A stretch of 63,995 nt of DNA, counting the filler, from Hausera hauseri (lineage: Eukaryota), in assembly GCA_046269625.1 (NCBI GenBank). It is 12 parts of 12 records of this genome, joined end to end, with 100 filler letters (N's around TTAATTAATTAA, not from the genome) between each part and the next. Parts side by side here need not be neighbours in the genome. Positions count along the whole stretch, not along the records: positions 39,374 to 43,622 come from JBJURY010677217.1; positions 43,723 to 49,131 come from JBJURY010260732.1; 10 more parts are not named here. One strand, given 5' to 3'. This document shows positions 5,172 through 59,825 of this stretch, one piece after another; the first letter of the stretch is position 1, and each line of letters opens with the position of its first letter. The position numbers were made by a program, and so were the translations under genes. The notes beneath the pieces are model-generated. The model worked only from the letters and a program-made list of their open reading frames with translations. It had not been told where the DNA came from and ran no database searches.

Positions 5172-5173
5172 AT

Positions 5174-5184: not shown

Positions 5185-5185
5185 A

Positions 5186-15400: not shown

Positions 15401-16601
15401 TTGCTTTTCCATGGTGTGGTCTTCCTAGATGTGGTCTTCCACGGTGTGGTCTTGCATGGTGTGGTCTTCCATGGTTTGGTTTTTCAAGGTGTGGTCTTCC
15501 ATGGTGTGGTCTTCCATGGTGTGGTCTTTCATTGTGTGGTTTTCCATGGTGTAATTTTCCATTGTGTGGTCTTTCATGGTGTGCTCTTACACGCTGCAAT
15601 CATTCATGCTGTGGTCCTCCATGGTGTAGTCTTTCATGGTGTGGTCTTCTATGGTGTGGTTTACCATTGTGTGGTCTTTCACGGTGTGATCCTACATGAT
15701 GTGGTCCTTCATGGTGTGGTCCTCCATGGTGTGGTCTTCCATGGTGTGGTCATCCACGGTGTGCTCTTACACGCTGCAATTATTCATGCTATGGTCCTGC
15801 ATGGTGTGGTATTATATGTTGTGGTCTTCTATGGTGTGGTCTTCCATCGTGTGGTCTTTCCCGGTGTGTTCTTCCATTATGTTGGTTCTCATGATGTGGT
15901 CCTCCATGGTGTAGTCTTTTATGGTGTGGTTTTCTATGGTGTGGTCTTTCATGGTGTGGTCTTCCATGGTGTGGTCTTCCATGGTGTGTTCTTCCATGGT
16001 GTGGTCTACCATTGTGTGGTCTTTCATGGTGTAATCTTTCATGATATGGTCCTCCATTGTGTGGTCTTTCACGATGTCATCTTCCATGGTGTGGTCTTCC
16101 TAGGTGTGGTCTTTCACGGTGTGGTCTTCCATGGTTTGGTTTTTCAAAGTGTGGACTTCCATGGTGTGGTATTTCGTGTTGTGTTCTTCCATGGTGTAAT
16201 CATTCATGGTGTGGTCTTTCATGGTGTGGTCTTTCATGGTGTAAACTTTTATGGTGTGGTCTTCCATGGTGTGGTATTTCATGCTGTGGTGCTCCTTGTT
16301 GCAATCGTCTAAGGCGTAGTCTTGCAAGGTGAGGTCTTTTATTGTATGATCTTTCATCGTGTTTTCTTTTATGGTGTGGTCTTCCATTGTGTGGTCTACC
16401 ATTGTGTGGTCTTCATGGTGTGGACATTCCTAGTGTGTTCTTTCATTATTTAGGTTTTCATGATGTGGTCCTCCATGGTGTACTCTTTCTCGGTGTAATC
16501 TTTCATGTTGCGGTCTTCCATGGTGTGGTCTTCCATGGTGTGGTCTTCCATGATTTGGTTTTTCAAGGTGTCGTCTTCCATGGAGTGGTCTTCCGCGGTT
16601 T
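12464..16601. repeat. About 4.1-kb minisatellite, 15-bp unit CATGGTGTGGTCTTC, with higher-order variant blocks
   Basis: Reads HGVVF / MVWSS / WCGLP on + and MEDHT / RPHHG on -; variant blocks such as TTACACGCTGCAAT recur. Confidence 0.97.
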
Positions 16602-19860: not shown

Positions 19861-19926
19861 GGCTCAACAGGCATAGCGGTTCCGCCTAAAAGCCAAAGAC
19901 AGCGGCCAGTTGATGCTGCTGCATTA

Positions 19927-25223: not shown

Positions 25224-27652
25224 TTACATAATTGCACATAAATTTGATATTTCTACACCTTTAGACACAGGAGGTAAAACTTGAAACTTTGAACCAGCTG
25301 TAGGTGGAGGAAATTCAATATCTTCAGATTCATCACCTGATTTTGTAGGAACATTTTCAGTGAGACTAAATGCTGGAGAGTGTTCATTTATATTGCCTGA
25401 ATTGGCAGGTGGAATGTCAGTATTCTTGTCTAAATTTCCATTGTCCATTTCAGAATTCTTATTGATTTTACCACTCTCTGCTTCTTTTTCTGTTGGTTCT
25501 TCTTCTATAATGCATTCAGTTGCTACATCTTCAAATTGCATTACTTCATCAGTATTTTTTTCATGGCTCTTGATAACGCAGTCTGACGGTTGAGCGTCTG
25601 CTGCTTTTTTTTTAATTAAATCTACAGAGTCTCTTTTATTATCATGCTCCAACTCTTCTTCAATTTCTTCTTTTACATCACATGCGAATTCTTCTTTTAT
25701 ATTGCTGTCTGTCTCTTCTGTTTCCATTTTTGCATCAGGATTTAGGTCTTCCACTTCAATTTCAACAGCACTGGCCGATTCATCAAATGACATCTCAGAG
25801 TCATTAGCAGTAGTTTCATTAGCGTTTTTGTAATCTTCATAACAAGCAGGATGATAAGCCTGGTCATCATGTTTAACAGCATTTCGTAAATGCCAGTTTT
25901 CTTCTTCTTCTTCCCAAAATAGCTCAAAATCTTCTGCGCATACAGCACATTTTTCAGAGCTACATTCACTACATGCTACGCTGGAAACATTTTCTGGTAC
26001 TTCTTCTGTTTGTTCAACATTATCCTGAAGTTCAAAATAACTTGGAGCTCTCTCATCAACATCATCAAATTCTTTAAACTCAGTCCAGTCCTTAATTTCG
26101 TGAAACCAACTACGAGAAAACGTTTTATTAGTACCATGTTTTTCTCTTCGAGTTCTCCTAAAATGCCAGTCCAGATGGCGACTATACTGTTCACTTTCTG
26201 TTGCCTTGAACCTCATGCCACAAGTAGCACATTGTGAACCACTATATATAGCTGCAATAACTCCAGAATGAAACTTTTTCAAACACTCAGAATCGAATGT
26301 AATTTCAGGAATTGTTTCCTTCTTGGGAGGCTCCTCCTCGTCTTCCTGTTTTTTAGATTCAGATGACGTCGCTTCAACAGAGTTGGGTGTAGAAGTAGCT
26401 GAACTATTCCCAATGAGTCCAGCAGCTTTTAGCTTTTTCATAAATAATTGCATATCATCTGTAATTACAGAAGATATTTCTGTTGTACTTACTGGCACAG
26501 GAGACAAATTAGGCACATTTACAGGAACTGCGTACGTGGGTAGTGCAGAAACAGCAGTGAATCTAGGTACTGGCACAGGAGCAGCTAATCTAATGACTGA
26601 CTCTAATGGTCGCAGATTCAAAATTGTAGCAGCAGGTTGAGGTGGCGGCAATAAAGGTGTTGACACAGTTGTGTTATTGTATCGCACAGCTACTGGCTTT
26701 CGAAGAGTAGGTGCCATGGAACTAGTGTTTGGTACAACACTAAAAAACGGAGGAATAGGAGGTGGAGACAGTCTTGGAATAGTTCCTGCCTTTACTGCAT
26801 TTAACTCAGTAGGGACAACTGCAAATTCATTTGCACTATGCTTTCGAAGAGAAAATGGCACATTAGTTGGAGGCAAAGGCATGGGATGTCGTTCCTTTGA
26901 AGGAAACTTCGTCAAAGGTGTATCAATACCCCTGAAAGCTGGCCCAAACTTAGCAGCACTAGTAGTATATATTGGTGATCTTGGCGGTGATACAGAAAAT
27001 CTGTCAATACTCTGCTTTGCTGGGAATGGAGATGGTTTCAGGGGAGCAGATTTTAATTTCTTCTTTTTATTTATATCTGCGTCAAATTCATGTGAATTTT
27101 GAAGACTGCAGGGTCGCTTTTTTCCTGTAGAATATGTTGCAGTAGATGCTGCATGCTCGTTTATAGACAGACGTGGATCTCTGATAGTCATATTTTGTGT
27201 ACTGATGGCGAAAACTTCGGATTTGCATAAACAGATGATTGAGCAAGAATTGGCCATGCTGAATCCAAACAAAGTATGCATTTATCAAGCTGCAACAAAA
27301 CAGCATTCGGGAATAATCCAGTCCATGTTGAACGTAATTTGTATAGACGACGTCTAGTTTCTTCATCGGCCTGCTCAAATACAGATGTAAACACTGGAAC
27401 GAGATGCTTGCTAAACAGTGAAATATAGAATTTTCCAATATTCTTCACAATCGAATCCACTAGATATAGGCGAGGAAGCTTAATCATAGGAGTGGCCGAA
27501 TTGATATCATCTACTATAGTTTGGACTATCACTCCTGCGTGAACAGCATTTTCTTCGGCTAACATTGTCAGCATATTAATATGCGGTTTACTATTGAAAG
27601 TTAGTTCAGACAACGAAGATCGATACTCCTCGGCTATATCAGTAATTTCCAT
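25224..27652 (-). CDS. PCF11: Pre-mRNA cleavage factor Pcf11; intronless, one frameshift near 27190-27220
   Basis: CID domain (EYRSSLSELTFNSKPHINMLTMLAEEN...KLPRLYLVDSIVKN...LRSTW); RDPR motif; zinc fingers QCATCGMRF...HLDWHFR...SRSWF and CAVCAEDF...YHPAC; C-terminal CAIM. Confidence 0.93.
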
Positions 27653-28423
27653 GTTATTCGAAGTGCTTCGAATAAATTACGCCAATGTAATAATGCTGCA
27701 AAATGTCCAGAAAACCGGATGATACCAAGAAAAGCACCTCAGACTTTCAATACACTATTTAATATCATCCCCAAAATAATATCGACTTTCTCTACGCAAA
27801 CTAGCATCACAACTCAAACCGTCACATTAAACCATAATACATCTAACTTCATCCTTGTCGACTGGTTGCTTTTCACCCTTCTCATTGATGTGCCATCACA
27901 TTTACCTGTTCCATTTGGTGGTCTGACACTCAGTGACTACTGCTATTCAATTCTATGGATCATTGTGTATGGGTACGGTTCGATTTCTATTGATCATTGA
28001 CAAAGCATTCTTTGCTCTTTGTCTATTGGCTACTCCTATTCAATTCCAAGGTTTGTTTATTGTACCATTATGGTTCTATTGTCCCGACTGATTTCTTTTT
28101 TCACACTTGCCGTATGTGCTTCCAAACATCTACCGCACCATAAAAGAAAGCATATAACTCTGGGGTGAGGCGCTAAAAACACAGCGGAATCGAACGATCC
28201 ACCTCATGTGCATTAGTCCATTGTGGATCGTAAGTATTCACTTTCAAGTGTTCTTTTTCAAGATCTATTCAAAATTTCTTTGGTGTTTTATTCCTATCTA
28301 CCATCTATTATTGACATTGCATTTTATGAAAATATTTGAGATGTATCATTTTTTTTTTCAATAGAAAGACAATTCAAATACTTCTCAATCTGCAATGACC
28401 AGCAACTAGTGTGAACACATTAC

Positions 28424-28830: not shown

Positions 28831-30284
28831 TTTTTTTCACTGCCGGAGAACAGTAGCTCACCAAGAATAATCTTGGTTTGGAGCTATTTGCACTGTTCCC
28901 GGAGGGGAAAACCCCTTTTTATTTGAAATAACATAAAAATACAGATACAACAAAACATCAATACATATACAACAATAAAAAGAAATGCAGTTAATATAGA
29001 TAACACTACTAAAAGTAAAGATATAAGAATAAAAGTTCAGATGCAACAATATGATAGAATGCAGTTAAAGGCAGTATAAGGAAAATGAAATTGTGCTCAA
29101 GAATTGAGAATGGTAGTAGAGAACATAAAAATCCTCCGTAAGACAAGAGAGCCCAGTAGCAGCCGGGCAGTTCAAAATTGGCATGATAACAAAATAGCAG
29201 GCCATAAATTGGCAAAGCAAAATAGAGTGACTTACATTATTAATGATAAAAAGCATACAGATATATATAAATGTAATTACAAAAGAAAGCAGTGTATGAG
29301 AGAGAAGAAAGGTAACTTTGTTTACCAGTGAATAACTAAATTCTTGTGATAAATATATGCACTACAGTTAAAATCAAGTCAGAATAGCAATTCATACAAT
29401 GGAATAGCAGTCAATTACTCTGTCACATTCAGCACTTTGTTCGGCTGAGAAAATAGCAAAAGGCAGAAACACTGAATGGCAGAAATAGAAATCAATGGTT
29501 AAGGAAAAATTAAAACGTTAATAACTTTACAAAAAAGCGAGATTAAAACAAAAAGGCAAAAAAAAATCAAACCTTAACGTCGAAGCTTTTCGGGAGGGGA
29601 AGAACTATCCCCCTAGTCAAAATTAAAAAGTTTTTTTTTCATTTAAACATGAAGTTTATGAGGTATTTAGATAACAAACACAATCACACAGGCAAAAACA
29701 CTGTGCCCACCTATATGCCTTTCAGCACTGGGGATAAAAATATCAGACAGGAGAGAACTGGGCTGTATTTGTGATTCAGACTGTAGTTTAGTTTAAAAGT
29801 AATAACATCCTTGAACATACTCATTTTACTAAACTTTTCTCATTCTAAAATTTGTGTTTCCACAGATTTTTTTCCGTGTTGTTTTTCTGAACAAGGCTAC
29901 ACATACTTGATGTTTTTTAAGACCTTGTCACTGTCTGTCTGTATAATCTGCCAGGATCCATCTCACCATCTGCCTCCTTCTTCATCTGTCTGCTCTTTTC
30001 TTTCACTTTGTTGATGTCATAGTTCCTCTCCAGTATTTTATCAGGGCTGTTTGCATCCGGTGGGCTTTGTCTGTGCATCCCTACATCTCGTCTCGTTAAC
30101 TTCAGTATTTGTTCCCATGTTGCTCTATTTACAAATCTAGTTTAGATTAGAAACACCTAAAGAAANNNNNNNNNNNNNNNNNNNNNNNNNNNNNNNNNNN
30201 NNNNNNNNNTTAATTAATTAANNNNNNNNNNNNNNNNNNNNNNNNNNNNNNNNNNNNNNNNNNNNGCCTTCAACAGCCGGTACA

Positions 30285-33200
30285 GGCAGGCCTAGGAAAA
30301 CGAGTTTACTCACGTAGAGTTATAGCCGGTAAAATATGGCCCGGATATGGTGGAGCATGTAAAGGAGAAAGCATGATGATAAATGGACAAAAAATCCGCT
30401 GTAGTACAAATAGAAGATTTTACTGTCACCATAAAAAATATAAAGTAAACTTTGATGCAATTATAGGAAAAATGTTAAACGCACTATCTTGTACATATTC
30501 TGATGGAGTGTGTACATAGGGGAATCTACCCTAGTTTGGGAAAACACGGTCGTAATATGTCCACTATCTTTCGTTAAACAAGTATCTTTGTACGAAATGC
30601 AAGGTAATTTATATTATGATGACGAATACCAATAACCTGTACATAACTATAATATAAGTTTACCTACCCCACGAACCTTAAAACAGACCACTTCTTGGAA
30701 AGTCTTAATGTCATCCAGAGACAAAGATGGAATCGTACTGGCACGCAAATGAGCAGTATCGACTTGTGGATCGAATGCAGTTTATTCTACATCTTATGAA
30801 GACTTATTCGTAACAAAAGAAACCTTAGGGAATACAGGAAAGCTACCAACTGAAGATATAAAGTGGTACTTATACACGAATAATAAGATAGATTATATTT
30901 ATCACACGGCAAAAAGGAATTTAGTTGAGTTGTATAACATGATGGTATTAAGATATTGTAAAATCACTCAAAAATTGAATCAGAACGACGTAATACTAGC
31001 TATAGAATTTCGTGAACATATTGCTTTAATTATGGGATATCGTCCTGGAACATTTGATAGAGTACAGGGCGAAACATTCCATGTGTATCAATGCCCTCCG
31101 ATGGAGGTAACCCCAATAACAAGCACAAGACAAAATTGTACGAATGAATTAATTGTTCAGTATAATGATAAAAACATAAATAAAATTGGATATGTGGATC
31201 CTATTACTCGAAAATTATTGTTACCTACTGAAATTAGCTTTACAACATGTTATAAATATTTCTATCCAGCTTTTAAGCTTAATGACGGAAGGTGGATTAA
31301 AACACGCCCACCAATTATGATGAACATACCACACACGATTGAGTTATTACCAATGGATAAAGGTATGCAGTTTAAAGTAAATAGAGAACTCCCCACCAGT
31401 GGATTGTATTAATTAACAGACTTGGAAGCAGTAAGAAAACAAGTGTTATTCCAGAATATCCGAAAAAAGGTTACCACAGAATTTGTATATACTGTTACAA
31501 AAGGATCAGGTGGTATACCTAATTATGGAATATTACTCCCAATCGACTATTTAGAAAGAACATCTAAAAAGATCCTTTATGACTTTTGGAATAAATTCCT
31601 TATTTTTGGTCAAGTTATATCTGGAGTCTTTGGGATATATGTTATAATTACTGCCATAATGGTTATATTAAGACAGATAGGAACTGCTAGGAATATAAAG
31701 AAAGTACGTGGTTTTACATGGCAAATTATGTTTGGATGTTTTCCTTCAATGCCTCAATCAGTATTAATGTACTGGCATGCAAAGAAACTTGACAAATTAA
31801 GAAAAGAACTTCGTTTAGCCCCAGAGTTAGAACAACAGTTATAAGCTTTTATTAAGTTAACAGTGGAAGAATATCTAGTTAAATATAAATTATTAAGAAA
31901 GAAAGCTAGACAACACTCCGAGCTAGAAGCGCCCACATACTTCAAACCCGAATTTATTAATGAATTCCCAGAATACCCTGATTACAGAGAAATAAAGGTC
32001 ACGTCCAATGGCAAGATATTTAGATGAATGTACCTGTTTACCAAATACTGCTTATCCACCTAATGTCCTCCGACAATATAATACCGCTAACACTCGACGG
32101 AATAATACAAAATTCATTTTATGACCAAAACCAATACAACAACAGGAAATAACCCTTATGTTCAAGTACTATTTAATGGATTAAACATTATGGTACTACT
32201 AGATACCGGTGCATCCGTGTCAATGATTCGACATTCATACATAACTGACGTTCAAAAGGAAACAATCATGCCTAGTGATATACTAATAGCAGCAGCCAAT
32301 TCTACACAAGTACAATTTCTAGGAAAAATAAACATCAAAATAAGAATCAATGATAATCTACACACCATAACCCTGTTTGTGGTGGATGATAAAACATTGC
32401 CAGTACCCTTAGTAATAGGAATGGACGTATTATCTCAAATCTTCGGACTCTCAATGGATCTATCAACCAAAACCCTTAAATACACGATGACCAACTTGCC
32501 AATTGAGGTAATCAGCATGACCTTGACTCATGACGTTATTATCAAACCACAACAACAAATAGTGGTACTGCTAACGATACCATCGCAATACCACAAGCAA
32601 ACTTGTATGTTTGAACCGAATTTATATAATAATGAAAAATATGAGATCCTACAATATCCCCTATTTATACCAAAAGGAGTGCAAAATTTGAAATTGTCAA
32701 TGGAAAGCATTAATAAAAAGGCAATCAAGTTACGACAAAACCTTAACCTAGGACAATTACAACCGGTTAAAATATGCACAGCAACGTTCTTAGTAGAAGA
32801 TGAAAATATCAAATTTAAAGACTGTGAATTTACTTTATATCAATTAAAAAAACGATTGCAGTTATTCCACAAATATAAAGATATTATAGCTATGAATGAT
32901 AACGATATTGGCAGAACTAACGTAATTAAACATTATATAATCACAGAGAACACCTATCCTATGAAAAAAAATCCGTATAGAATGGCTGAAGTCAAGAAAG
33001 AAGAATGCGATAGACAAATAGCACAAATGGTGGAACACGGTATTATCAGACCGAGTTTCTCACCATGGACATCCCCAGTAGTATTATTGCAGAAGAAAGA
33101 TGGAGCACAACGATTCTGTGTAGATTTTAGAGCAGTAAATAATGTTATGAAGAAAGATAATTATCCATTACCAAAGATAGATGAGATGCTTACAGCTTTG

Positions 33201-34890
33201 AGAAATGCCGTGATATTCACCACCTTGGATTTGCAGTGTGAATTTTTGCAAGTCGAAGTTGCCGAGGAAGATAAGCAAAAAACAGCCTTTACTAGCGGAA
33301 CTAGATTATGGTAATTTAATGTTATGATTTTGGTTTGACAGGAGGACCTGCCACGTTTCAAAGATGTATGAATTTTGCATTGTAAGGAGTAACCTGTTGT
33401 ATGGTTTATATAGACGATGTAATAATATTTTCTGAAAACTTCAAACAACACTTAATGGACAATTTACAAGTATTTGAGAGACTGAAACATGATCATTTAA
33501 AAATCAAATTGAAAAAATGTGAATTTGCTAAAAATACTGTCACTTTCCTCGGACACATACTGTCGAGTAAAGGAATTCAACCTAATTCTAGAAATGTAGA
33601 GAAACTTAAGAAATTAAACCACCCAACTGTCTTAAGGAGTTAAAAAGACTGTTAGGAATGGCCAATTATTACAGGAAATTTGTATATAATTTCGCAAATA
33701 TAGTTAAACCATTAGTAGAATTAGTCAAGAAAGAAACAACATAAAATTGGGAAGAAACACATCAGAGTGCATTTGAGATTTTAAAACAAATTCTTACTTC
33801 ACCTCCAATATTACAATTTCCTGATCCCAAATATCCTTATGAAATAATGACCGATGTCAGCGGTTACGCTATATGAGCAGTCTTAGGACAATGCGTTCCC
33901 GACAGACCTCGTGAAGGAATAATAGCTTGCCTCAGTAAAACGTTAAGTGAAACACAACGTAGATGGTCTACAATCGAGCGAGAATGCTATGTGATAGTAT
34001 ATGCTCTACGATATTTCAGATATTATATAACTGGACGAGAAATAATTTTATACACCGATCAAAAACCCTTACAATAGTTAATGAAACAACGGGATACCAG
34101 CCGAAAATGAATGAAATTGGCTGCAGAAATCCAGGATTTACAGATATCAATAAAATACTGACAAGGAAAAGGTAACGCTAATGCAGATTTCCTATCAAGA
34201 CTTTAGGAAACTGATATTGATCAAGAGTATAACAATCACACCAACTTCGATTACGATGATACGCAGGATTTAAAGGAACATTATTCGCAGAAAGTTCATT
34301 TAAGTATACCCAAAGCAACACGAAAGAAACACACTAAGGATACAGACCAATTTATAAGTATAATTATACAAACACTGAACAAAGATAATCAACGAAATGC
34401 AAAACAAAGTGACTACAAGGATCCGTTAGTGGAAGACATCTTATATGAGTATTACAAAATGATCGACTTAATTCAGACCATGATAGATAAGGTAGACAAT
34501 GCGGAATTCAACGAAGAGATGCATATATTCTTATCCATACCAATTACACACGAAGCTATAGCTAAAGAACAAGCAAAGGATGAGAAAATTTGTAAAATCC
34601 GCCCTAGCCTAAACAAAGAAGGGAGCAAAAATAAATATAAAATGGAAAGGGGAAATATCTACTATCAAGAAAGTGAAGACTTACTCATGGTTGTGCCAAA
34701 AACACATGCGTGCAAAACTTTTATTACATTATCATGACGGACAAATTGGAGGACATCGAGGTTATAAAGCTACATTAGGCAGACATAAACAAAAATATTA
34801 CTGGCCAAAGATAGCGGATGATATAAAAGATTGCTGTACAAATTGTCAAGTTTGTTCAAAGAGAAGAGGAAATTTTCAAGCAAGAAAAAC
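30285..34890 (+). mobile_element. Decayed 'env-before-pol' Gypsy-type retroelement, copy 2 (glycoprotein, TM, PR, dUTPase-like, RT, RNase H, integrase HHCC)
   Basis: Glycoprotein (GETFHVYQCPPMEV...QNCTNEL...YVDPITR; FWNKFLIFGQVISGVFGIYVI) at 30285-31844; PR LLDTGASVS; RT SPWTSPVVL, RFCVDFR, YIDD; RNase H TDVS and WSTIEREC; IN YHDGQIGGH...YYWP...CQVC. ORFs starting 30930, 31422 and 32121 share one frame. Confidence 0.88.
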
Positions 34891-39373: not shown

Positions 39374-40058
39374 AAGTAGGAGTCATATCGCCCCAACCTT
39401 ACTAGATGTCGTATGAAGCGGCTCCGCTGCAATAGCTCCCGTACCGTCAGAAAGTTCGAGTAAGACCGGTACGGGGCTCGCTTGTCGGTGTTGCGGCGTC
39501 GTTTTCCACGGGAGACGGCGTCTCGCCGGGTCGGGCATGGCTGCTCTGGCTCGAAGGTTGAAACTGGACTGTTACCCGGGCCCCGTGTTCTCGGAAGTTC
39601 TGGTATGGACCGTTTAGGTATCCGGTATCCTGATGTAAAATTAATGACTTTGTTGACTCTCGGTTTCGAAGTGATTGCCGTACCTTGTTTCCGAGTGATA
39701 GGTTCACCGATTTTCGGTTTGACGGGGGCGGCATAGACTTAATTGACTTCTCCGTCGTTCGATCCTTTCCAATTGTATTAAACGTTTCCGACATTAATGT
39801 AGAGATGTTTTTATATAATTCTGATCGTTTTTAAACTGTGCATTCAAACAAATGGATTTGAATCCACAGATTTTGATTGTTAGTTTTTTATTTATTACAA
39901 GTGATGGTTAATTCTGCACTTGTGATCCCGATTTTTAATTTTTCTATAAAGTATTTTTGTATGTTAGAAAATTTGATTTTGGTATACATTATTTGACAGA
40001 ATCCGTGATATTAAATTGTGATTTTAAATTTCATGTTATTGTAAGTTGGGACCTTACA
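39374..40058 (-). mobile_element. LTR-like end (TGTAAGG...) carrying the start of a conserved ORF; homologue of 49232-50695
   Basis: Same terminus, same three hairpins and peptide SGYRIPKRS...RAPYRSYSNFLTVRELLQRSRFIRHLV (frameshifted relative to annotated ORF 39447-39794). Confidence 0.75.
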
Positions 40059-40175
40059 ACTACTATAAGATAATTCATATCGTCCATCTTCATATTAATT
40101 CTATATGCCCCTCATATTTGCATTAATGTTTTTATATGTTGGTTTGCAAAGCCTCAACACAACCAACATATAAAT

Positions 40176-40192
40176 TGGTGCCCCGAATGAGG
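40176..40192 (+). promoter_or_regulatory. Primer-binding site, elongator tRNA-Met-like
   Basis: ...caaca tataaat TGGTGCCCCGAATGAGG versus expected TGGTGCCCCGTGTGAGG. Confidence 0.65.
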
Positions 40193-40402
40193 AAATTACT
40201 TATCTCACCTGGGAATATAACTGTGATTTTGTTAATAAGAGAGATATTAAATAAGTTAAAGTAGAAAATTATAAATTTATAAATAACAGATGATAAAACT
40301 ACCTATAATAACTTCAAAGTCGATAAATGTTAATTCTTGGAATAATAGCGTTACTAGAATTGCCCAAGTTTAACCTTGAATAACCCTGCATAATTAATAT
40401 TA

Positions 40403-40588
40403 ATGAGAATATTCGTAGATACCAAATGCAGTCCCGAAAAATGCAAGATCTGCTTTAATTCGTTGGGAAGGAAATATGTCCTATTCTGATGCATACATAT
40501 TATGTGCATCAGTTGTGAAGATCAATTGCTCAGGAGAAACCAATCCTGCGCCTTTTGTCGAAGGAAGATGACGAGTTATCAATGTTGA
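40403..40588 (+). pseudogene. RING finger (C3HC4) mini-ORF, one internal stop
   Basis: MRIFVDTKCSPEKCKICFNSLGRKYVLF*CIHIMCISCEDQLLRRNQSCAFCRRK. Confidence 0.75.
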
Positions 40589-40964
40589 GAAACTACTTGG
40601 GTAGTACTGTCTGATGATGACGACAATCAGGAACAGAATGAAATAATATTGGTGGGTGAAAACGGCATGTTGCTTGGATTACCCTGACTTATCCGATCAT
40701 GTTAATATATTTGAAATATACAGTGTTTTATTGATCTGTTGGAAAGATAATAGATAATAATAAGATTGGAATTAATTGTAGTTCACCATCTTAATTATAA
40801 TGGAATGAAAGTCGGATAATATTAGTACAGTCCGGATACCTTACTAGCAAAGTGTTTAATTCAAAGGGATGACTGATGAACCTATCAAGGGATCAAAGAT
40901 ACGCCCAATATGCGGATGCAGCATTAAATGGAAGAAAGAAATTCCAAAACTGATGTGAGGAAAC

Positions 40965-41589
40965 GTTATTTTATTGCGACAATTGTTTCAAACTAATAGG
41001 AACAGAATCAATAAACACGATTGAAGGACAGATTTTATGCCCATTGTGCACACTAACTGACGAGGATATAGAGAGGTAGAAAGAATGAACGAGACGACAA
41101 ATGTTAATTAGAGTAAATAAAAGAATACCAAAGAAAATATAAATATTACACAATATCGAAATATTAAATAAATACTGAAGAACGTATTGAATAATACATG
41201 TTTTGTTTAAAAGATCGATGGGGCGATCAAAAAGGCTGAATGAATGGGAAATAGATATATCCAAGTGATTTAGAGAACATAAATACCGTAAAGATAAAAT
41301 ACAATAATGCCAAAATAATACGCTAATTAAAATATTTTTTATAATCTGTTCATTATGTCAGAAATATACAGCAGCAACGGAAGTGGGGCAGAAACAATGC
41401 CCTGTATGCAAATTAATAGCAAAATTGGACACGAACAGGGACCAGTTCGAATGTGGCTACTGCGGAGAGATAATCAGGTTGGACATTGCTACCATAAATG
41501 AGAACTATCTACTCTTTTGCCCAATTTGTGCGTTAACTCCCGCAGACCTTGAAGAACTAGATATATTGTTTGAATTAAATGAATTATGA
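40965..41589 (+). pseudogene. Two paralogous C4 zinc-finger modules
   Basis: FYCDNCFKLI...ILCPLCTLTDEDIE (about 40968-41075) and FECGYCGEII...LFCPICALTPADLEE (ORF 41383-41589). Confidence 0.65.
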
Positions 41590-41712
41590 TAGAACGTGTA
41601 ACATTTAATAAATGTCTAAAGTATAATCACTGAAGTAGAGTTGTTAGTTGGTGTATAAAAATATTATAGAACTACTCCACTAATAAGGCAACTAAATACT
41701 TATATTTTACAG

Positions 41713-41975
41713 ATGCTTGCCACATCTGCTTGGAAGATTTGACAGTGGAGCGAACGACTTTGCCATGCAAACACCACTGTTGCCAACTCTGTATATTTAC
41801 GTGTCTATCAGAACAAACTGCTTGTCCATGTTGTAGAATAACATGCGCCCTTTGTTTAATATGCCTTAATTTGGTGGCGTTACCCTAGCAATACTCCCCT
41901 GTCGACATGCCTTTACCAAGATTCCATAATTAAGCACTTAGAAATCAATCAGTTTTGTCCTTCACGCTACAAATA
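41713..41975 (+). pseudogene. Tandem pair of RING fingers
   Basis: CHICLEDLTVERTTLPCKHHCCQLCIFTCLSEQTACPCCR, then frameshifted CLICLN...ILPCRHAF.QDSIIKHLEINQFCP; preceded by acceptor-like ttttacAG. Confidence 0.75.
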
Positions 41976-42347
41976 CGCGAATTTTTATTTTCTGGTAGAA
42001 CTGATTATTTACGTGGATACCGAAAACCGAGCGTCAATAAGCCTCATAATAGATGAAGACGAGGACGAATCGCCGGACAAATGGAGAAACCCCAGGCTAT
42101 TCATGATTACTGGCTTATAAATAAGGAGATTTTTCTGTATAACCAATTATTGTATATCTAAATTGTCAATAAAAATTAATAAAGTCGCCTTGCTCTTGAA
42201 AGGATTTAATGTCGATTTTGTTAAGATTTTCCTTGCCTATTATGCAGAAGGCATACCTTATCATATGGATTTCAAGTCCGTTTCCACTCCCGTCAAATCA
42301 CCTACTCAACCTATAACCCACAAGGAGCATTCGCACCCATCGGAACA

Positions 42348-42529
42348 CCTTGTGCAATCTGCTTGAACCCCTATTCAATGGATCCTGTGGAACGGACCAC
42401 CTGTAAACATAAATTTTGCCGATCTTGCTTAAAAGAGTGGTTCCTAACATCAACTTCCTGTCCGTTATGTCGAGCGTACAATAGGCTATTTCGAAGTGGA
42501 AATGAATACTTTACTATTCGAAAATTATA
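42348..42529 (+). pseudogene. RING finger (C3HC4)
   Basis: PCAICLNPYSMDPVERTTCKHKFCRSCLKEWFLTSTSCPLCRAY. Confidence 0.85.
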
Positions 42530-42766
42530 AATACAATGTTATTTTTAGAAGTTGTTTAATTACACGGGAGGAGGCACATAAGGGTGTAAAATAATTACTT
42601 AGTTGGTCGAAAACCTACGACAATATTTAGAGTTGTTTGTCAATAGAATAATTTATTAAACATCAAAGTTAAAACCAGTTTCGTTTTAGTCCAAATGCAA
42701 ATGATCAAATGCACTGAATATGAAACACCAAGACTATATGCATGTTAGGAATTATCCCAATCAAAC

Positions 42767-43477
42767 ATGATAGGGTACTTACGATATTATAGAAATAGGC
42801 AAAATGGACCAGCTGCATTTATCAGAAGAACAATAGATTATACCAAGATGAAAGTAGTTGACGACTCAACGAGAGATACCCAGACGAGGAAAATATTATT
42901 CTTGAGCCATCCGAATGTATCCGTTCCGGGAGAGTTAGCCCAGTTGTATGCGAACACCGAATTATTTCGAAAATTAGCTAGACAAATAAAATGCCTGTAT
43001 TGCCAAGGAGACTTCCTTTATGAGTCTACGAAAGATCAACCAAAAAGGACTCATAAGAATTTATCCCACCTGCCCTTATCTATTAACACTAATGTTAATA
43101 ACATGCAATTAACAGATAATTTTTCTAAACCGGATATAGACAAAGACATCGAATATGGCACGACAATACCAGTGCGAATGATTTATTCAACGGATAATAC
43201 AGTAGAAGAAAACTTATACCTAATTTCAAATACAGTCCATAAAAGAAAGTCAACCTTTAAAGGAAACAAAAATATTGAACATTTACCTAAACAAGGACTA
43301 ACACTAATTTCAAGAGATCAGTATGTAAAATGTACGATATACTTAAAAGAAACCTGTTTACTGGAAAATATCGAAAATAGATGCACAAATATACTGCATA
43401 CCATCAAATGCAATTATTCAATATATAAAATCCCCGAAGACACATTAAAAAACGATGCCGAATACAATCTTATATAG
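42767..43477 (+). CDS. Unidentified 236-aa ORF downstream of the RING cluster
   Basis: Open frame in AT-rich DNA, codon style like the retroelement ORFs; no motif recognised. Confidence 0.4.
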   Translation: MIGYLRYYRNRQNGPAAFIRRTIDYTKMKVVDDSTRDTQTRKILFLSHPNVSVPGELAQLYANTELFRKLARQIKCLYCQGDFLYESTKDQPKRTHKNLSHLPLSINTNVNNMQLTDNFSKPDIDKDIEYGTTIPVRMIYSTDNTVEENLYLISNTVHKRKSTFKGNKNIEHLPKQGLTLISRDQYVKCTIYLKETCLLENIENRCTNILHTIKCNYSIYKIPEDTLKNDAEYNLI

Positions 43478-44192
43478 GAAACCTTTGCGAAAGTTATCAA
43501 GAAAGTCCAGTAGCCGTATCAACAATAGCCCGACATCCTACAAAGCGCGAAAATGTTCAATATATCAAACACCAAAGAGATCCAACAAGATTGGTCTCCA
43601 AGTACATTCGAACTACTTCAGANNNNNNNNNNNNNNNNNNNNNNNNNNNNNNNNNNNNNNNNNNNNTTAATTAATTAANNNNNNNNNNNNNNNNNNNNNN
43701 NNNNNNNNNNNNNNNNNNNNNNAAGCCGTCACAGCACTAAAAGGACGTGCGAACAATCCAACGTGCCGACTAAATATACGGATCGAGGAAATTTCACGAT
43801 AAAATATTGAATTTCAATATAAACATGGTAATAAACATGACGCTGACGTACTATCAAGGTTAAAAACAAGGACAAGTGCAATAACAACCATGAAGAAAAC
43901 TCAACTTGAAGAAATAATGGACCGACAACGAGCATTGGCATTGGATAAAGCAATCAAAATTTCAACTGAACAAAAGAAAGATAAGGATATAAAACAAATT
44001 ACAGAGTTTGTGGAAAATGACAACGCCAAAAAAATCACCAACTACGAAAACATTTACAAAGACACGGTCATAAGTATTGTGTAACAGGAGACAAAAGCCA
44101 TGAAGACGTGCTATACTATGAACGAAAGGGACGCAAATTAGTAGTCATACCAAAGGGATTACTCACAGAGGTACTAATAGCCGAACACGATT

Positions 44193-46863
44193 TGTACTTG
44201 GCCGTGTTGAAGAACGTATGTAAGATAAAATTCCATATTATTTTCAATTTCATTTATCCTATACCAACATATAAATATCTGAAGGTGTCAGTTCGATGGC
44301 GGTTCGATTACAGAAGTAATCTGCGTCTTTACTTAAATAGAGTTATCTCATAAATGTTTCCTCCTTAATTTCTCAAAATCTTGTCATGCTTCTACGATAT
44401 TTTCTTTTCTTTATTCTATTTCATCACTGTATGTATGTCAATAATTTTCTGAACATACCTACATACAAATAACAGTATGAGTATTTGGTTAATGGTATAT
44501 GAATATTTGTACAATAAACCTTCCTTCTTTTCTCTTTTTTTATTTATACTAAAATCCTTCAATTCATTTATATTTAAGCCTTTAATATTTAATTGAATTT
44601 ATCATATCCACGGTTCATTCAAATTCTTTAATATTGCTAATTTCATCTCTCTACATCTATTATCTGAGGAGTCTAAAACTTATTTACCCAGATGAGAACA
44701 TTTAACATCCACTGAGACGTCAGATTCGTAACTTACACCTCACATGTCGCTCCTTCTTTTTATATACGTCCCAAACACAACCTATTTTGTTGATAATTAA
44801 TTAAATTTTTATTCTCCTTCTATGTTCTTGATAACAACATTTTATATTGTTTTAAGACTCCACAGTGATACAATCGTCATTATTCTACTACCCTTTAGGT
44901 CGTACAACCTCTAATACTAGTCAATGAATGATTTATCAATTTCAAACTTGAGCTTTCCTTACTCGCTATTTTCATCGTATTTGCCTGTGTATAAATATAT
45001 ACATATCATTTTTTAATGAATACATACTTTATTCTATATATAACAATTCATACAACCAATATAATCAACAATATCTATGCAAATTCTACAATAAAAAATG
45101 TAATACTTTCATAACTCAATTATTCACTTTTCTGCTACCTTGATTATTCCCATTTCCTGCCATACTACTTCAGAATCTTCCAGTGTTCCAACTTACTGAG
45201 CTGACCTCGATTAATATAGAAACCAACATCGATTCGAATTCATCAAAAATCAACATCAATTAATATCTATCTGGAATCATGAGAAGCGTTTCGGCCTTCT
45301 GGTTTATTAGTCATTAATTTGGTCATCCATAGCACATCATGTCTTTTGTTCCACATCCGTAAACATTTATTCATCGAATAATTGGTGATCATTATTGACT
45401 CTGAAACTATATTGGCTACATACTTCATTATAAAACAGAGAAACTCCTGTTCGTACATACATATAATTTCATATTAAAATCATTTATTAAATGACAAAGA
45501 CTATACATCAATAACAATAATCATTACGATAAATATATTTGAATACTCAATTAACCATTATATTACCATTAAACTCATCATTGATGGAAACGGATATGCT
45601 TTCTCCTCAAGTACTCATTTCGTAATTCCTGTTTTCTGTATCAATTCGTCGTTACAATTTAATGGAAGTCTCCCTTCTGTTAATATAAATAACAAAATCT
45701 TCGCTATTAAGTACCTACTCTGTATGGACCTTCTTCTGGATTATAATTAATAATGCTGAGTTATGCGAAGTATTCGATGCAATTAAGATCTCAAAATTAC
45801 TTTAGTTGTCACTACAAAATTAGAATAATATACGCTGGCAAAGATTCATATACTCACCAAGCTATGTATTCTAAATACTGAGAACGGTATCTCAACAATT
45901 TACAAATTATTGTATGATAAAACTTTTTTGTGTGTTTTATGTTTGGTGTTCTTGCTTATATAGTGATCATAACCACTTCATAATTAGTTGTCAATATTCA
46001 AATTTGATTTATCATTCATAACTATAATTTTCTAAATTAGCCGTTACTCACTTCTTTTAACTATTCATATTTAGTCATAAGATGTATCAATTTTCTAAAT
46101 AGGTTCTTGTTAATCTTCAAATTCAAAAAATACCTAGCAGCTACTGAACCATTAATTGTTCAAGATAATTGTTAACCTTTAATATGATATTAAACTTAAA
46201 ATCAAAATGTTTTTCAAATATTCATTTCATTTATCACTCTCCTTTGGTCCCATGGTAATCATGGTCAAAATCGCTCTTTTCCATATTCAACTATTTATCG
46301 TTTATTACACCTCTTGGTTAACAAACAACCTCATAAGTGTCAGTTATAAAAAGGTGTGGCCAATCACATAGGCTTAACATAGTAATGAAAAGAAAGATTA
46401 AAAGTTCAAAATAAAAGAATGTATTTACAGTATTCCATAAAAATATTTATATTTCAAATTGTCACATTGTTCAGTAGGCATTAAAGAAATAAAATGTTCA
46501 ATATTCAAATCAAAATGTTCAATTTTGTTGAATCTCAACAAAAATCAGAATGTTCAACGTTCACATTTCTGAATCATCAAAAGATGGTTGTTAAGCTGGT
46601 TGTTTGGTTGTTAAGCTGGTTGTTGGCTGGTTGTTTGGTTGTTAAAGAGTTGTTTGGTTGTTAAGCTGGTTGTTTGGTTTGGTTGTTAAGCTAATTGTTT
46701 GGTTGTTAAGCTAATTGTTTGGTTTGGTTGTTTGGTTGTTTGATTGTTAAGCTGGTTGTTTGGTTTGGTTGTTTGGTTGTTAAGGAGTTGTTTGGTTGTT
46801 AAGCTGGTTTTTTGGTTTGGTTGTTTGGTTGTTTGGTTGCTAAGGATCCTCAACAGCCGGGCA
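44193..46863. mobile_element. About 2.7-kb AT-rich insertion splitting the integrase HHCC motif, with imperfect inverted termini
   Basis: Left TGTACTTGGCCGTGTTGAAG; right (rc) TGCCCGGCTGTTGAGG; related terminus CTTCAACAGCCGGTACA at 30268-30284. Confidence 0.6.
46585..46840. repeat. Compound tandem repeat (GGTTGTTT / GGTTGTTAAGCT / GGTTT units)
   Basis: Direct inspection. Confidence 0.9.
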
Positions 46864-49231: not shown

Positions 49232-50695
49232 GTAGTGATTTTCTGATTGACAGCCGTGCTGGAAGTGTTCTCAGCGGAAATTGTGTGATCACGTTTAGTG
49301 ATGTGAGTATTTGGGGCCGGATTATTGTCGACGGCACTAGTGATTGTATGCACCGGATGAATATCTATGGTTCTGTCCGAAAGGGACGTGTGTGCGGTAA
49401 CCGCTGCCACCATTTTAGTAAATCTATTCTTTACCAAAAAATAACACGTGAACAAGACAAGAAATAAACAAAATAAATAATGTTTGGAAAGTTTATTTAT
49501 GTCCATAGGTTCATCCAGGGAAATGTACGATTCGTCCGTGTCCGTGGAAGATAAAGCCGGGTCGTTTCTGGAACCGTGTCGGAAATCTGTCGGAGCATCG
49601 TCCGAGCCGGAATCGGTTGGTACTGTTCTTGTCATCTGTCGTCGGCGACGACGACACGGTATTGGCGAGTCCTGCGAGCTTGCGATCCCCCGACGTTTCG
49701 GGATTAGCCGACTCTCGGAGGGAGCCAATGACTCGTACAGTCGGTCGGTTGCTGTCATCAACCGCAGGAATATAGGGAGGAAGACCGCCGAGTCAAATAG
49801 ACGACGGTTGCCTCCATCCTGGTAGAACCGGTTGAGCAGGTTGGCTGGAAGAGAGTAAGGATCGTCTCTTTCCAGGCTGACCAGGTGCTTTATGAAGCGA
49901 CTCCTTTGAAGGAGTTCCCGTACCGTCAAGAAGTCCGAATAGGACCGATACGGGGTTCGCTTGTGAGTCTGTCGAGGTTTGCTGACTAAAGCAGCGTGTC
50001 TCTCGTTTGGGCAGGACTGTTCCTGACCGGTGGGAGTACTTGGAATGCTATCTTGGTTCGGTATTCCCGTCGGTTTCGACCGTTTAGGGATACGGTATCC
50101 TGATGGCAAGTTGGTCATCCCATTGATTTCGGTTGTGGAAGTGACTGGAGTGCCTAGCTTCGGCGTTATCGGTTTGTCGGTTTTCGGTTTGGTCGATTCA
50201 CAACGGTTGTTTACAGCATCGGATAGTGCGGCTGTGTTGTTTTTCCGGACTATGGGTTCTCCGGGTTTCGCTATAACTGCAACGTGGTTCCTTCTTTGGG
50301 TTCCTGTCATCGCCTTCATGTTCTTGGTATCGTGACTTGGTACGGACATCGTTCGCTTATTTTTATTCACTGCGTTTTCTTTTTTTTTGAATTATTCTGT
50401 TCAATCTCTGAACTGTGGATTCAAACAAAAGATTAAATCCACAGATCTTGATTGTTTTTTTATTTGTTACAAGTGCTGGTCGCTTCAGCACTTGTAATCA
50501 TGATTTTATTTTTTCTATTTGTATTTTTGTATTTGGGATTTTTAAATTTTTTGTAGTTTCGTGGGTTTTATTAATTTGAACATGAATCCGTGATTTTAGC
50601 TTTTGTTTGCTGTTGGTTATATTTTTAAATTTTAAGATTGGGATTTTTAATGTAGGCGAATTAAGTTTGGTATTTTTGTAAGGTGGAACCTTACA
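49232..50695 (-). mobile_element. Long LTR-like sequence containing an ORF of at least 380 codons (50370 to contig end)
   Basis: Minus strand purine tract then TGTAAGG; ORF with basic/disordered N-part, conserved RTPYRSYSDFLTVRELLQRSRFIKHLV core and hydrophobic YLFCLFLVLFTCYFLV; homologue at 39374-40058. Confidence 0.7.
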
Positions 50696-54595: not shown

Positions 54596-57500
54596 ATTTT
54601 ATTATCGGTGCTGATACATTCGCCTTTTGATCTCGTCAAAAGCATCCTGGTTTTCTTCTGTCCACTACCATTTTTGGTTCTTCCTTAATAGCTTATATTA
54701 AGGCTGGTTAATTTCTGCAAAGTCAGCTATAAAGGTAGCACAAAATCCTCTCAATCCTAACCAAGTTTTCATCTCGTGCACGTTAGTTCGAGGGGGATAT
54801 TCCAATATTTTAAATATTAAATCAGGGCTGGTTGATATACCTTGGTGAGAAACAACAAATCCAACGTATCTAACTTCCTTCTTGCACCATTCATATTTTC
54901 TCGGATTTAACTTTAATGTTGCGAGCCTGATGCGATCAAATACTTCTTTTAAATCTACTAAATGTGCCGACCATGTCTTAGATGCGATTAGAATGTCGTT
55001 AATGTATGATAATCTTCGTACTCCTTTTAATATTAACGAATAAATTCTTGGAAGAAGGTGGGTGCTGTTTTCAAACCAAACGGCACACGTGTAAATTGAT
55101 AAACCCCTGTATGCGTCTTAAACGCGGTTTCCAACCGATCTTCTTCAGCCATGGGGATTTTCCAAAAACCACTTTGTAAATCTAACGTGGTACAGTATTT
55201 ACAATCTTTCAGTTCGTCTATAATGTCTCGTATTTGAGGTATCTGATAGGCATGATTTATCAAATGCTTATTTAATGTAACATAGTTAACACACAAACGG
55301 TATTTTGTCGTTTTAGCTTTTTTGGCCATAACTATTGGAGAGGGCCATAGCGATTGACTAGGCTCTATGATACCCTTGTCTAATATTGCTTGAATTGGCT
55401 CCTCAACTTCCTTTTGTAGTGCTTTTGAAGGGGGTACCATTTGGTATAGGTTGCCGCAATAAATCTATTTCTTTTCCTGTTAATGGGTCGATCATAAATG
55501 ATAGTTTGAATTTAACGAAATTGGTTCGTCCGATGTCCGTTTTATCTTTGGCAAAAATGTCCAAAATACTCAAAAATAAGATCGGAAAAGTTTTCTAGAT
55601 AACCATCTGATAGATTTTTCTTAGCTTTGCGAGAACGACATCAAGTTCATCTTCATCCTTTTCTTTTCCTTTGATTGATATGGCTGCGGTTTTACTATTG
55701 TATTCGTCATGAAGAATTGTTTCAAGGGCCCGTCCGAGTTTCATCTTTGTGAATAATGTGACGTATTTAAGGGTCGGATTTAAAACTTCAATAGGGATAG
55801 TTCCTTCGACTACGTTAACACAATACTGTGGCAGTATAAGCCCATTTTGAATAATTTTCGGTACAAACTCGATTATACTATTATCTGAGAAGACCGTTCT
55901 GGCATGTATGACCATTCTAGAATTGGGTGGTATTTTCTAAACGTGTCCTACGCAGATGTCTGCTTTATCGTAGGTAAGAGGAATATTTTCATTATTAAGG
56001 CAAATTGATTCAGATTGTAGATTTATGTGTACACCTTGTAAATTTCGTAACACGTTCATCTTTAGGATGCATCTTGGATCTAGGGTGGTAATTACATCTA
56101 AGGTTATTTTGAATCTTTTTCCACAAATCCATGGTTCGCATTTCCAATATCCATAGGGTTTGCTGCATTGCTGGAAGGCTGAATTGGTACCATGTGAGTC
56201 TTTGGTGGATAATTTTATTTGAGATTGTAATTCTTCTGGAATTGCCTTTTTCGCTATTAACGCTACATTAGCTCCGGTATCCGCCATAGCATTTAAATTA
56301 AAAGTACCAAAATGAACTGTTGTGTGGGGTCGATTATCTCTTAATAATTCGTGAAAAGTTAATACATCGTTGTAATCATCTATATGAGGTTCCATGAAGG
56401 TCTAACTGGCTGAACAGTATCTAGTTGTTCCGTTAGCTAATATGACCGTCAGACTTTCCACTGATTGTGTATCATTTTCTGACCCTTTTGATTTGTTTTT
56501 GAGTTCAGTCAAATCTGGGTAACAGCTTAAATATTTTGATGTTGTTTGTTGTACATTACTGGATTCAGTTGTTGGAATTATATATTGGGATTTCCTGTCA
56601 GGTTGAGCTTCTCTTGATCTGTTTGCTGGATGGTAGGGTACCTGCGGTATCATGCCCAATTTAGGTGATATTGGTAACGTTACTCGATTATTTTCCATAT
56701 TTCGCGTAATAATGGATTGACGTATCTCGTCCTGAGAGTACTTGGGTAAGTTACATAATTTTATGTAATCTTCTTTCTTTGCGTAAGGATCTGTTAAGTA
56801 TTTCAGATTAGATAATTTACAAATAGGCATTGTTTTACTCTCATATGATGCAGCAGGTAATTTTTGCATATTGTTTCTCTTTGGTTTCATAAATTTGATT
56901 TTTCTCCTCTTATCCTTAGGAATTCCTGTTGTGGAATATTATCCAGGGGTATTACCGTCATCTGAACTTGATGAGGTATCCTTTGGTAATAGTTTCTACT
57001 ACTTGTAGTAAACATGTTTTTCTAATTTACCTCGCCATTGTTTCTCATGGTAGGCTTTGATGAATTTGCCAATCAGAGAAAATAAAACGCCTATTATACT
57101 CAACGATAATCCCGTTAGATGGTAAATCTCATAAGCATTTAGCACAGAGTTGATACAGACATTTAAAGTTTGTATAATAAAATAGATTGACAGAAATCTT
57201 GATGCTACTTGGCCGAATCTTAAGAATCCTCCCCACATTTTGTATCACAAATTCGAGACGATTTTGGTATAGGCATCCGGCGTCCATAATCGATCCTATT
57301 TCCCTTCTCCTGCTGTGTTGTCAATTACGCAGTGTATTCCTCGATTTACTATTTGTTCTCTCTGTCTCGAATATGCCAAAAACTTTACAAATGAATTGAT
57401 GTCTTTCTTGCTATACAATGCTGACTTGGATACGTCAGTAAACATGTTGGTTTCAGTCGCATGTTTCAGATTTGGCATCGTTAATTTATTTGGTTTTTCT

Positions 57501-59530
57501 TTGACTCTATCGCGATCCTGTAGTATAATCAAAAGATCTTGGTTATCATACTTGATTAATGGCTTATTTAGTGCTGAACAATTTTGGATTTCAGTAGGTA
57601 TTGTATGTGATGCCAGAAGCACTCTGAGGATTGGTTGCACGTATCAAATTTCTTCATTATATTTGACAAGTATTTCAGAGTAACACGGGGAACCCGTAAT
57701 TAATGGTAATTCTAAACGTTTACATATATATGTATGTAGCACCTCTCCTAAAATCTGCCCTGGATTCCTTCTCCAAATGGGAAAATTATCGTTATCATTT
57801 CCGAGTTAGACGCATAATTGGCTAAGCGATTTCTTAGAGTTTCAAAGTTAACTTTGCAAAAGTTTTGAATTGTTTCAGAATATATTTTCTCAATTGTTCT
57901 ATGAATCAAATAGAACAAAAAATCATCTCTGTTTGCAATATAATCAGCAATGTTTACTAACTGAGCCTTATTAGTAGGCGAATTATCAGCACCTTTGATT
58001 TCCTTTTCTGATATAAAATGTTTGTCGTAATTCGTACTAAATACTTGTTATCCACACTTTGTAATCGCATCTTGTTGATTAAATTTGACTCCTCCTGTAA
58101 TATCCTTGGATATTNNNNNNNNNNGTTTTTACTTTGGGAATGACTTGAATATTAGTATGTTCAGAAGTGGTCTTATAGTGCCGTGAGTAACGTTTTCCCG
58201 TAGTTACATTAAATTCTCCCCTTCGTATTTGTACTAATGTACAATCATAACTTGTTGGCAATTTCCAAACTATTGTGGATGTTTTTAGCTTGCAGAAGAA
58301 TGCGTCCATCATTGTATTTATACTAGTTTCAAAAATATAAGTATTATCCTTAATCTCAGCTTATATTGGTCGTGTACTACAATACTTGCTTCGACACCTT
58401 TACCGGTATCAAAATTTCCTTCTCTACAATTACCTTTTTCATCTTTATAACCAGCGATCCATATTTCTTGTTGGGTTACTTGTCCTCTTATTGAGGTCAA
58501 CAAAATGTCATCCCATTTCAACTGCAGGGTTTCTCCCGCATCTCTACAATATGTAAGGTTAACTGACACATATTTAGGCATATTGGTTGGCTTAATATAA
58601 GAGTCATGATCTAGGTGACCGCAGTGAGAAATGGTACGGGATACGCGCAGTGAAAATTCCACTCCTTTTATGTGTAACATAGTTTTGTCGTAGTAAATAT
58701 ACAAATTTTGCGTTTGAGTCTCCAATTTCCTTGGAAGGGCATCCGAACAAGATTGTAGATCCATCAAGGAGTAGTAGTTTCCCCGCATATATTTGGTCGC
58801 AATAATATGCCAATATAGTTCCTGTCCTTTAAAAATTTGTGAATAGTACCAACAAGAGTAGAATAAATTGTAAAAATGTTCCGTTATGTTTTACGCCATC
58901 ACTCTTCTGGACTTCTTCCTGTATTTGATTTGACATTTTCTCCATAATAATGCGAACTATTTCTTCTTGAGATGCATTTTGAGTTATTTCAAATATAGCT
59001 TTCTCTATGTTTGTCTGTTCTACTTCGGATTGCATTTCCTTCCCATTTTGTAAAAACAAATCACTCCATTTTCTTTACAGCTGAATAACAGATTTGCTGG
59101 CGAGAATTATTTTACCGGTTGTAATTTTAAATTCGGCTTTGCTGGGTGTTTCTAATATCAGTAACAATGTCACCTTTTCGAGTATTAAGCGGGATAGTGT
59201 TTCGAGGATTAGCTGTATAATATCATTATTGTTTAAGTTTTCCCATTCTGAATTTTTCTTAAGAATTTTTATAAATTTTAGTTGCTCTTTAACTCGTTTC
59301 TTCCATTTTTAGATCCAGAGTTTATTGGATCCTTTCCAGTCTCTATGTAATATATTTCTCTACCTAGTTTCTTCACTTCTTTGTATTCTTTATACAAGTT
59401 TGGGGTTTCATAATCCATCATTTGAGTAACAAAATTCCTGACAATAGTTATTTATATAGAATAAGTAAGTAAATCAGTTCAGATTTTATTTAAACGTGTT
59501 TGAAATTGCACTAGTTTTGGTGTCAATAAT
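54596..59530 (-). mobile_element. Decayed 'env-before-pol' Gypsy-type retroelement, copy 3 (helical region, signal, glycoprotein, TM, linker, PR, dUTPase-like, RT)
   Basis: FLQFILLLLVLF..AYYCD; VSRTISHCGHLDHDS; GNCREGNFDTGKGVEASIVV; WGGFLRFGQVAS TM; MADTGANVA; RT SLWPSPIV, YRLCVNY, LDLQSGFW, VPFGLKTAP. ORFs starting 59059, 58813, 58312, 57640, 57238, 56890, 56395 and 55915 share one frame. Confidence 0.9.
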
Positions 59531-59574
59531 CTTTTAAATATATCTCATTACTGTATACACTGAACTGGCAGCAC

Positions 59575-59825
59575 AAAACTTGGCCGCGTTGACGCTCGAT
59601 CCCGGCGCGGTCTCGTATCGAGCGGAAATCAAGTCGTGTGTGGCACTGCGGCAGTCCTTCATCGACGCGAAGGACCAACTTCCCGAAGTGTCACGGCAGC
59701 GCGACGCGATGCGGATGTTGATCGATCGTGAATTGGCCATACTGCGTCCCGTTTGGACTCACGACGATTTGCGGGCCTTCTCCGTGGACATGGCCACGCG
59801 GGCGGAGATTGACCGCCTGATCAAG
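59575..59825 (+). other. GC-rich coding-like fragment of different composition fused to the AT-rich element
   Basis: Abrupt composition shift near 59575; open frame to contig end; no motif recognised. Confidence 0.5.

Follow-up and report, generated by a model that had tools for sequence, protein, structure and literature searches.

A contig of 4,249 bp (JBJURY010677217.1, positions 39374-43622) from Hausera hauseri (assembly GCA_046269625.1) is likely a decayed copy of a repeated mobile element of the long terminal repeat (LTR) type. It lies within a stretch of 63,995 nucleotides, referred to here as the window, which joins 12 unrelated contigs by N-spacers. We consider it fairly probable that the contig holds what decay has left of the 5' part of an LTR family whose primer site and main open reading frame (ORF) are conserved and are separated by a variable leader coding for proteins of the E3 ubiquitin-ligase type (RING) and for zinc ribbons. 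The reading is carried by a genuine primer-binding site (PBS), by a long ORF whose start is widely repeated, and by the cassette of small genes between the two. The present evidence is one broken 5' fragment, and depth and copy values were obtained from a single run, X1. The features of the contig are as follows, a motif resembling a SUMO-interacting motif being called SIM-like.

40176-40193, plus strand: PBS of 18 nt, matching a Met-type tRNA 3' end including CCA
42749-43622, plus strand: start of the long ORF, widely repeated and running off the contig, with a BIR-like site followed by a beta-rich region of no known type
40403-40687, plus strand: mini-gene R1, C3HC4 RING at 40442-40558, stops at 40487 and 40586, SIM-like motif at 40601-40624
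40869-41079, plus strand: mini-gene zfA, a C4 zinc-ribbon protein, frameshifted
41308-41589, plus strand: mini-gene zfB, a multi-CxxC zinc-ribbon protein and paralogue of zfA, with an ATG at 41355 in another frame
41707-42120, plus strand: R2+R3 block, acceptor-like site, RING2 at 41718-41834, degenerate RING3 at about 41844-41967, SIM-like motif at 42043-42069
42265-42594, plus strand: mini-gene R4, C3HC4 RING at 42351-42470 with all eight ligands, out of frame with its own ATG
40060-40175, plus strand: LTR-end (U5-like) remnant of 116 bp, in which CAACA ends at 40168, 7 nt before the PBS
39374-40059, minus strand: repeat B, a decayed ORF with a terminal hairpin at 40039-40059, which truncates the LTR-like end and lies outside the cassette

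Primer-binding site and left boundary

The PBS at 40176, proposed in the first-pass annotation, is real and not a chance match, since the LTR-end and PBS core recurs in X1 with many different flanks. It is the sole exact match within the window, and its bases 13-18 presumably carry the complementarity on into the T-stem of elongator tRNA-Met. Its first 12 bases are fully complementary to a tRNA end which supplement 1 of PMC13524379 assigns to 'others', and they match the Met_CAU ends in 10 of 12 positions. Under an order-0 model, the chance of an exact match in the contig to one of about 170 tRNA ends, a list size estimated from the row numbers of that supplement, is approximately 0.015. The summed depth of X1 contigs reached about 340 over 40156-40195 only, compared with 15-30 on either side (53 contigs over 40000-40330), and this 40-bp peak stops two bases beyond the 18-nt PBS, having begun in the final 15-20 bases of the LTR-end remnant. 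Diverged copies are represented, a variant base inside the PBS being common to 23 X1 contigs, and the loose ends depart into unrelated sequence before 40159-40162 and behind 40194. A conserved 40-bp core in varied flanks is what is expected from related LTR subfamilies.

A tRNA gene lacks the CCA, as does a short interspersed nuclear element (SINE), and either would run on into the T-loop. Both origins were rejected because unrelated sequence flanks the peak on each side and no tRNA T-loop appears at the loose end downstream; in addition, ARAGORN found no tRNA in the window. Scanning with the PBS pattern gave no matches in viral contigs and two in metagenomes, both of them chance matches of bacterial origin.

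To the left of the PBS, the LTR-like end noted in the first pass retains its CAACA terminus at 40168, but only about 116 bp of it are left, with no TG start, and a matching LTR copy was sought in vain: the window contains no second copy of 40060-40175. The 5' part has been cut by repeat B, which the focal contig has in common with the contig at 49232-54495; the two copies agree up to the hairpin and then diverge, and where they differ, the change is mostly at the third position of a codon (21 of 35 and 19 of 37). In X1, other copies of the hairpin continue into yet another flank, and 40060-40071 is without cover. The supposed LTR is therefore a 116-bp remnant cut by repeat B, which is a separate repeat.

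At both of its sites in the window (39374-40059 and 49232-50690), repeat B consists of a terminal hairpin with a stem of 8-9 bp, an AT-rich leader and then a minus-strand ORF, which on the contig at 49232 is open for 386 codons, carries changes biased to the third position and has no Pfam or PHROG match. Its X1 depth is very high near 39456. Directly before the PBS stands a perfect 14-bp hairpin stem (40131-40144/40161-40174; z -2.35), and the 32 inner bases of this inverted repeat at 40131-40174 read TG...CA, with TATA flanks on both sides; only its right arm is common to most other copies. The bases just 5' of the PBS are matched 14/14 at 44263-44276, with no PBS following (E 0.1), which is probably due to chance.

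The RING and zinc-ribbon cassette and the long ORF

Four RINGs had been reported behind the PBS, and three of them are confirmed as C3HC4 domains, having eight ligands at RING spacing and passing the Pfam cut-off: RING1 (zf-C3HC4_3, E 4e-8, only when X is placed at the internal stop), RING2 (zf-C3HC4, E 3e-5) and RING4 (zf-RING_2, E 1e-11). RING3 is a frameshifted remnant spread over three frames, in which 5 of 8 ligands are visible and whose third-frame pieces gave no Pfam match. As for the two C4 fingers of the same annotation, they are paralogous to each other, but neither zfA nor zfB matches a Pfam family above cut-off, and zfB has double-zinc-ribbon leads in Atlas at 0.90 only. The strand bias of the whole region is pronounced, since 40176-43622 contains 20 CxxC motifs on the plus strand and one on the minus strand, and three full RING patterns on the plus strand and none on the minus strand, while 300 shuffles gave a CxxC mean of 2.2 (maximum 8) and no RING.

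The cassette is made up of five blocks (R1, zfA, zfB, R2+R3 and R4) of 37-41% GC, separated by spacers of 24-30% GC. In each block an ATG lies close to the beginning and a stop is present; in the focal copy, a stop or a frameshift interrupts all five. When shuffles were performed with the ligands fixed, RING2 and RING4 proved to be related (p 0.002), and the zfA/zfB score was reached by 0 of 2000 shuffles, so that the cassette was enlarged partly by internal duplication. RING1 was no closer than chance to RING2 or RING4 by the same measure (p 0.24 and 0.15). Of the sequences TTACAG, TTTCAG and TTGCAG, the plus strand of the cassette has a single instance, the acceptor-like TTACAG at 41707-41712; no GTAAG donor was found on this strand.

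The cassette is covered in X1 to a depth of 0-53, with no cover at 41078-41361. Among the 15 of 21 joints listed, zfB adjoins RING2 with other spacers in three single X1 contigs, and two connect RING4 with the long ORF itself or with the stretch preceding it; a further contig joins the PBS to the leader. These joints, short and of low depth, lend weak support to a recurrence of the same order of cassette parts in other contigs. Constructs of RNF4 were among the top PDB matches of RING4 and RING1, a generic RING likeness, and the second PDB match of RING1 was a herpesvirus RING, at a weak E of 1.6e-4.

Behind the cassette, between 42782 and the end of the contig, X1 depth rises to 140-460, the same order as the PBS peak, and as many as 43 variant contigs occur at a single site. 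The PBS-like depth of the long ORF, together with the 0-53 of the cassette, is in line with a core that is conserved and a leader that varies. The long ORF placed at 42767 in the first pass thereby stands as a widely repeated ORF start, but its 242-codon frame is probably a patchwork of frames. The long ORF contains, across a frameshift, a BIR-like Cx2C-x16-H..C site (about 42983-43082) that can be aligned with BIR domains over their C-terminal half, and 29 of the 31 PDB matches listed for it are BIR, with a best E of 0.17; the N-terminal half, in another frame, gave no BIR match. Both this site and RING1 were read with X across the stop or frameshift. No Pfam match to retrotrans_gag or CCHC knuckles was found in 42749-43622, nor any match to MATH, ankyrin, SUMO-like or BCL2 domains on the available part of the ORF. 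A ubiquitin-like reading of 43130-43474, made by eye, proved unsupported: the models reached a predicted local distance difference test (pLDDT) of 31 and 46, and no fold matched at E <= 0.001.

Known relatives and other contents of the window

The closest known system is Burro/GYPSM1, a giant gypsy element of planarians. The label AIR1 often denotes CCHC knuckles and not a true RING. In the available text of PMC6431247, Burro/GYPSM1 is described with BIR, MATH, SUMO-like and BCL2 domains and an AIR1 'RING Zn-finger' motif, with upstream accessory ORFs and with env between gag and pol, and interference with host ubiquitination has already been proposed for it there. The focal element resembles it in having accessory genes, here five mini-genes, upstream of the main ORF, and possibly in its ubiquitin and apoptosis cargo, the focal BIR-like site being below cut-off. 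On the other hand, as far as the same source goes, the Burro domains stand mostly in one polyprotein and its main ORF starts with gag and CCHC knuckles, whereas behind the PBS of the focal contig the C3HC4 and zinc-ribbon genes are small, separate and duplicated, and 42749-43622 is without such a Pfam match. No LTR element with stand-alone C3HC4 mini-genes behind the PBS was found in the literature searched, outside which lay Repbase and the original Burro report (Grohme 2018); the supplements of that report may describe the upstream ORFs, lowering the novelty of the cassette.

Other systems share single traits. The capture of host-type domains by LTR retrotransposons is known from the extra ORFs of rotifer Vesta/Juno (PMC5408684, in part) and from arthropod Copia-MBD (PMC6673714, in part); as there described, the additions are isolated ORFs or domains, usually located 3' of pol or in the polyprotein, in contrast to the duplicated E3 cassette in the focal leader. 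Herpes simplex virus 1 ICP0 and SUMO-targeted ubiquitin ligases (STUbLs) such as RNF4 combine a RING with SIM-like motifs, directed against SUMO-dependent repression (PMC3174244, in the text available). The cassette differs from them in showing no homology beyond the RING core, in having one SIM-like motif per gene, in its retroelement context and in that its activity is predicted. Troyka was rejected, its termini being CG..CG in the accessible part of PMC12440569, as opposed to the CA-type end here, and RING is mentioned nowhere in the available text on Tor elements.

A Monjiviricetes-type fusion gene is present on three other contigs of the window (1-4371, 30266-34890 and 54596-59825). According to Pfam, a protease or reverse transcriptase follows it in the latter two, and in contig 1-4371 it is placed before pol by position only. 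These env-before-pol contigs are diverged, decayed gypsy-like elements, and contig 1-4371 has, ahead of env, weak ubiquitin-like similarity over 758-1000 (E 0.18). They have the GAG-ENV-POL order of the errantivirus-like elements with gB-type env already published from nematodes, bryozoans and flatworms, in whose report 'RING', 'zinc finger' and 'ubiquitin' are not mentioned in the main text (PMC13524379, in part). The suggestion that the focal contig supplies the missing 5' end of this env-first, ubiquitin-like-bearing family received no support, since tblastx gave no link between them and blastp reached only E 1.5. The env-first contigs contain no matching PBS, so the two may be linked beyond the ends of those contigs.

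The remaining contigs hold, among others, the host genes PCF11, RIO2 and BROMI. PCF11 (25227-27676, minus strand) is near intronless, with two long open frames of 685 and 162 codons, and its best matches are spiders at 56-62% (11 matches among 72 candidates). The host genes are those of an animal, and by the PCF11 matches it is probably an invertebrate of arthropod-like type, unlike the planarian hosts of Burro. At 5005-8338, coding pieces of BROMI (TBC1D32) are interleaved with gypsy-like fragments and a 285-bp direct repeat, whose copies (4889-5171 and 11354-11634) are 89% identical. A long degenerate 15-bp tandem repeat at 12464-16600 gives open frames rich in His, Val and Gly, and 19861-21680 holds a decayed fragment of a Polinton/adintovirus-like DNA polymerase B with an endonuclease-VII-like zinc motif (weak Pfam).

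Competing explanations and proposed role

According to the reading preferred here, five small RING and zinc-ribbon genes would lie in a leader ahead of a longer ORF, and splicing or internal initiation would yield the RNAs that express them. The RINGs would recruit E2 enzymes, and the encoded ubiquitin ligases and adaptors would remove host silencing or defence proteins; E3 activity is a prediction, because the focal copy is decayed. The BIR-like ORF would form the head of the main polyprotein of the family, and gag and pol would follow past the end of the contig, an arrangement like that of Burro-type giants. A hydrophobic-then-acidic motif follows both RING1 (40601-40624) and RING3 (42043-42069), and could aim the ligases at SUMOylated chromatin factors, as ICP0 does. 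A strict SIM-acidic pattern, written after the motifs had been seen, matched twice, each time just behind a RING, a count reached by 0 of 500 shuffles, and had no match in ten other ORFs (2,964 aa). From sequence alone, these motifs are a lead and not a result.

ICP0 acts as a STUbL (PMC3174244, in part) and piRNA silencing is SUMO-dependent, through Su(var)2-10 (bioRxiv 533091, in part). By this analogy, ubiquitination of host repressors, possibly of SUMOylated targets, is proposed as the role of the cassette. The full extension of the idea, namely a giant complex invertebrate LTR or endogenous retrovirus family with an accordion-like leader of SUMO-targeted E3 and zinc-ribbon genes and a BIR-headed polyprotein, serving as an ICP0 counterpart against SUMO-dependent piRNA/heterochromatin silencing, must be regarded as doubtful.

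Several observations weigh against the preferred reading. No gag, pol, env, polypurine tract, second LTR or target-site duplication was found on the focal contig. The BIR-like site is below the Pfam cut-off (E 0.021), the long ORF found no homologue among 121 candidates or among 103 longer ones and no match in Atlas, PDB, PHROGs or IMG/VR (0 of 30 stretches), and its models (pLDDT 31 and 46, as above) were unusable. As regards the SIM-like motifs, besides the late wording of the strict pattern, two matches to a looser one were reached by 22% of shuffles, which is not significant, and a stop lies between RING1 and its motif, as frameshifts do between RING3 and its own. AATAAA follows three of the mini-genes, which is more in keeping with separate transcription units than with a single genomic RNA, although this signal arises easily in A-rich spacers. 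Moreover, X1 may be the source of the assembly itself, the summed depth of its contigs cannot be taken as a copy number, and each joint comes from one contig of low depth whose sides measure 22-59 bases.

Some of these points would suit a non-autonomous LTR derivative of the large retrotransposon derivative (LARD) kind, carrying RING/BIR cargo between its LTRs and moved in trans with no gag-pol of its own. The PBS is real, the 3.4 kb behind it are without a gag or pol match in Pfam, and such cargo carriers have been described (PMC6431247, in the text available). Nevertheless, the long ORF continues past the contig end and is no less widely repeated than the PBS, and Burro-type leaders and polyproteins are very long (same source, in part), so a derivative of this kind seems unlikely. 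Large DNA viruses of invertebrates commonly carry RING and BIR genes. A row of tandem one-exon genes with their own ATG, stop and AATAAA, and the weak herpesvirus match of RING1, could come from a fragment of such a virus, or of a Polinton-like element, that landed in or was captured behind the LTR and PBS at one or a few loci, the two being mere neighbours. This is improbable in view of the other contigs, where the PBS with its leader and the cassette order are kept; in addition, no relative came up in IMG/VR and the focal contig has no DNA-virus core gene.

That the blocks are exons of a host RING family or tandem pseudogenes, and the PBS part of some other element nested there, is very improbable. 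One good splice acceptor precedes RING2 and the RING cores are like those of ordinary cellular RINGs, but the plus strand lacks a GTAAG donor, every gene carries stops or frameshifts, there are many diverged copies, and the blocks lie directly downstream of the PBS on the same strand. The layout differs from the exons of one gene, and the first-pass alternative of a single host gene was thus not borne out.

The prevailing picture of animal LTR retrotransposons is one of passive targets for piRNA and SUMO-linked silencing through Su(var)2-10 (bioRxiv 533091, in the part available). If the preferred reading is true, a set of E3 ligases encoded by the element itself, and duplicating within it, would amount to an active counter-defence, and the idea of 'tinkering with ubiquitination' raised for Burro would become testable with small, separate genes.

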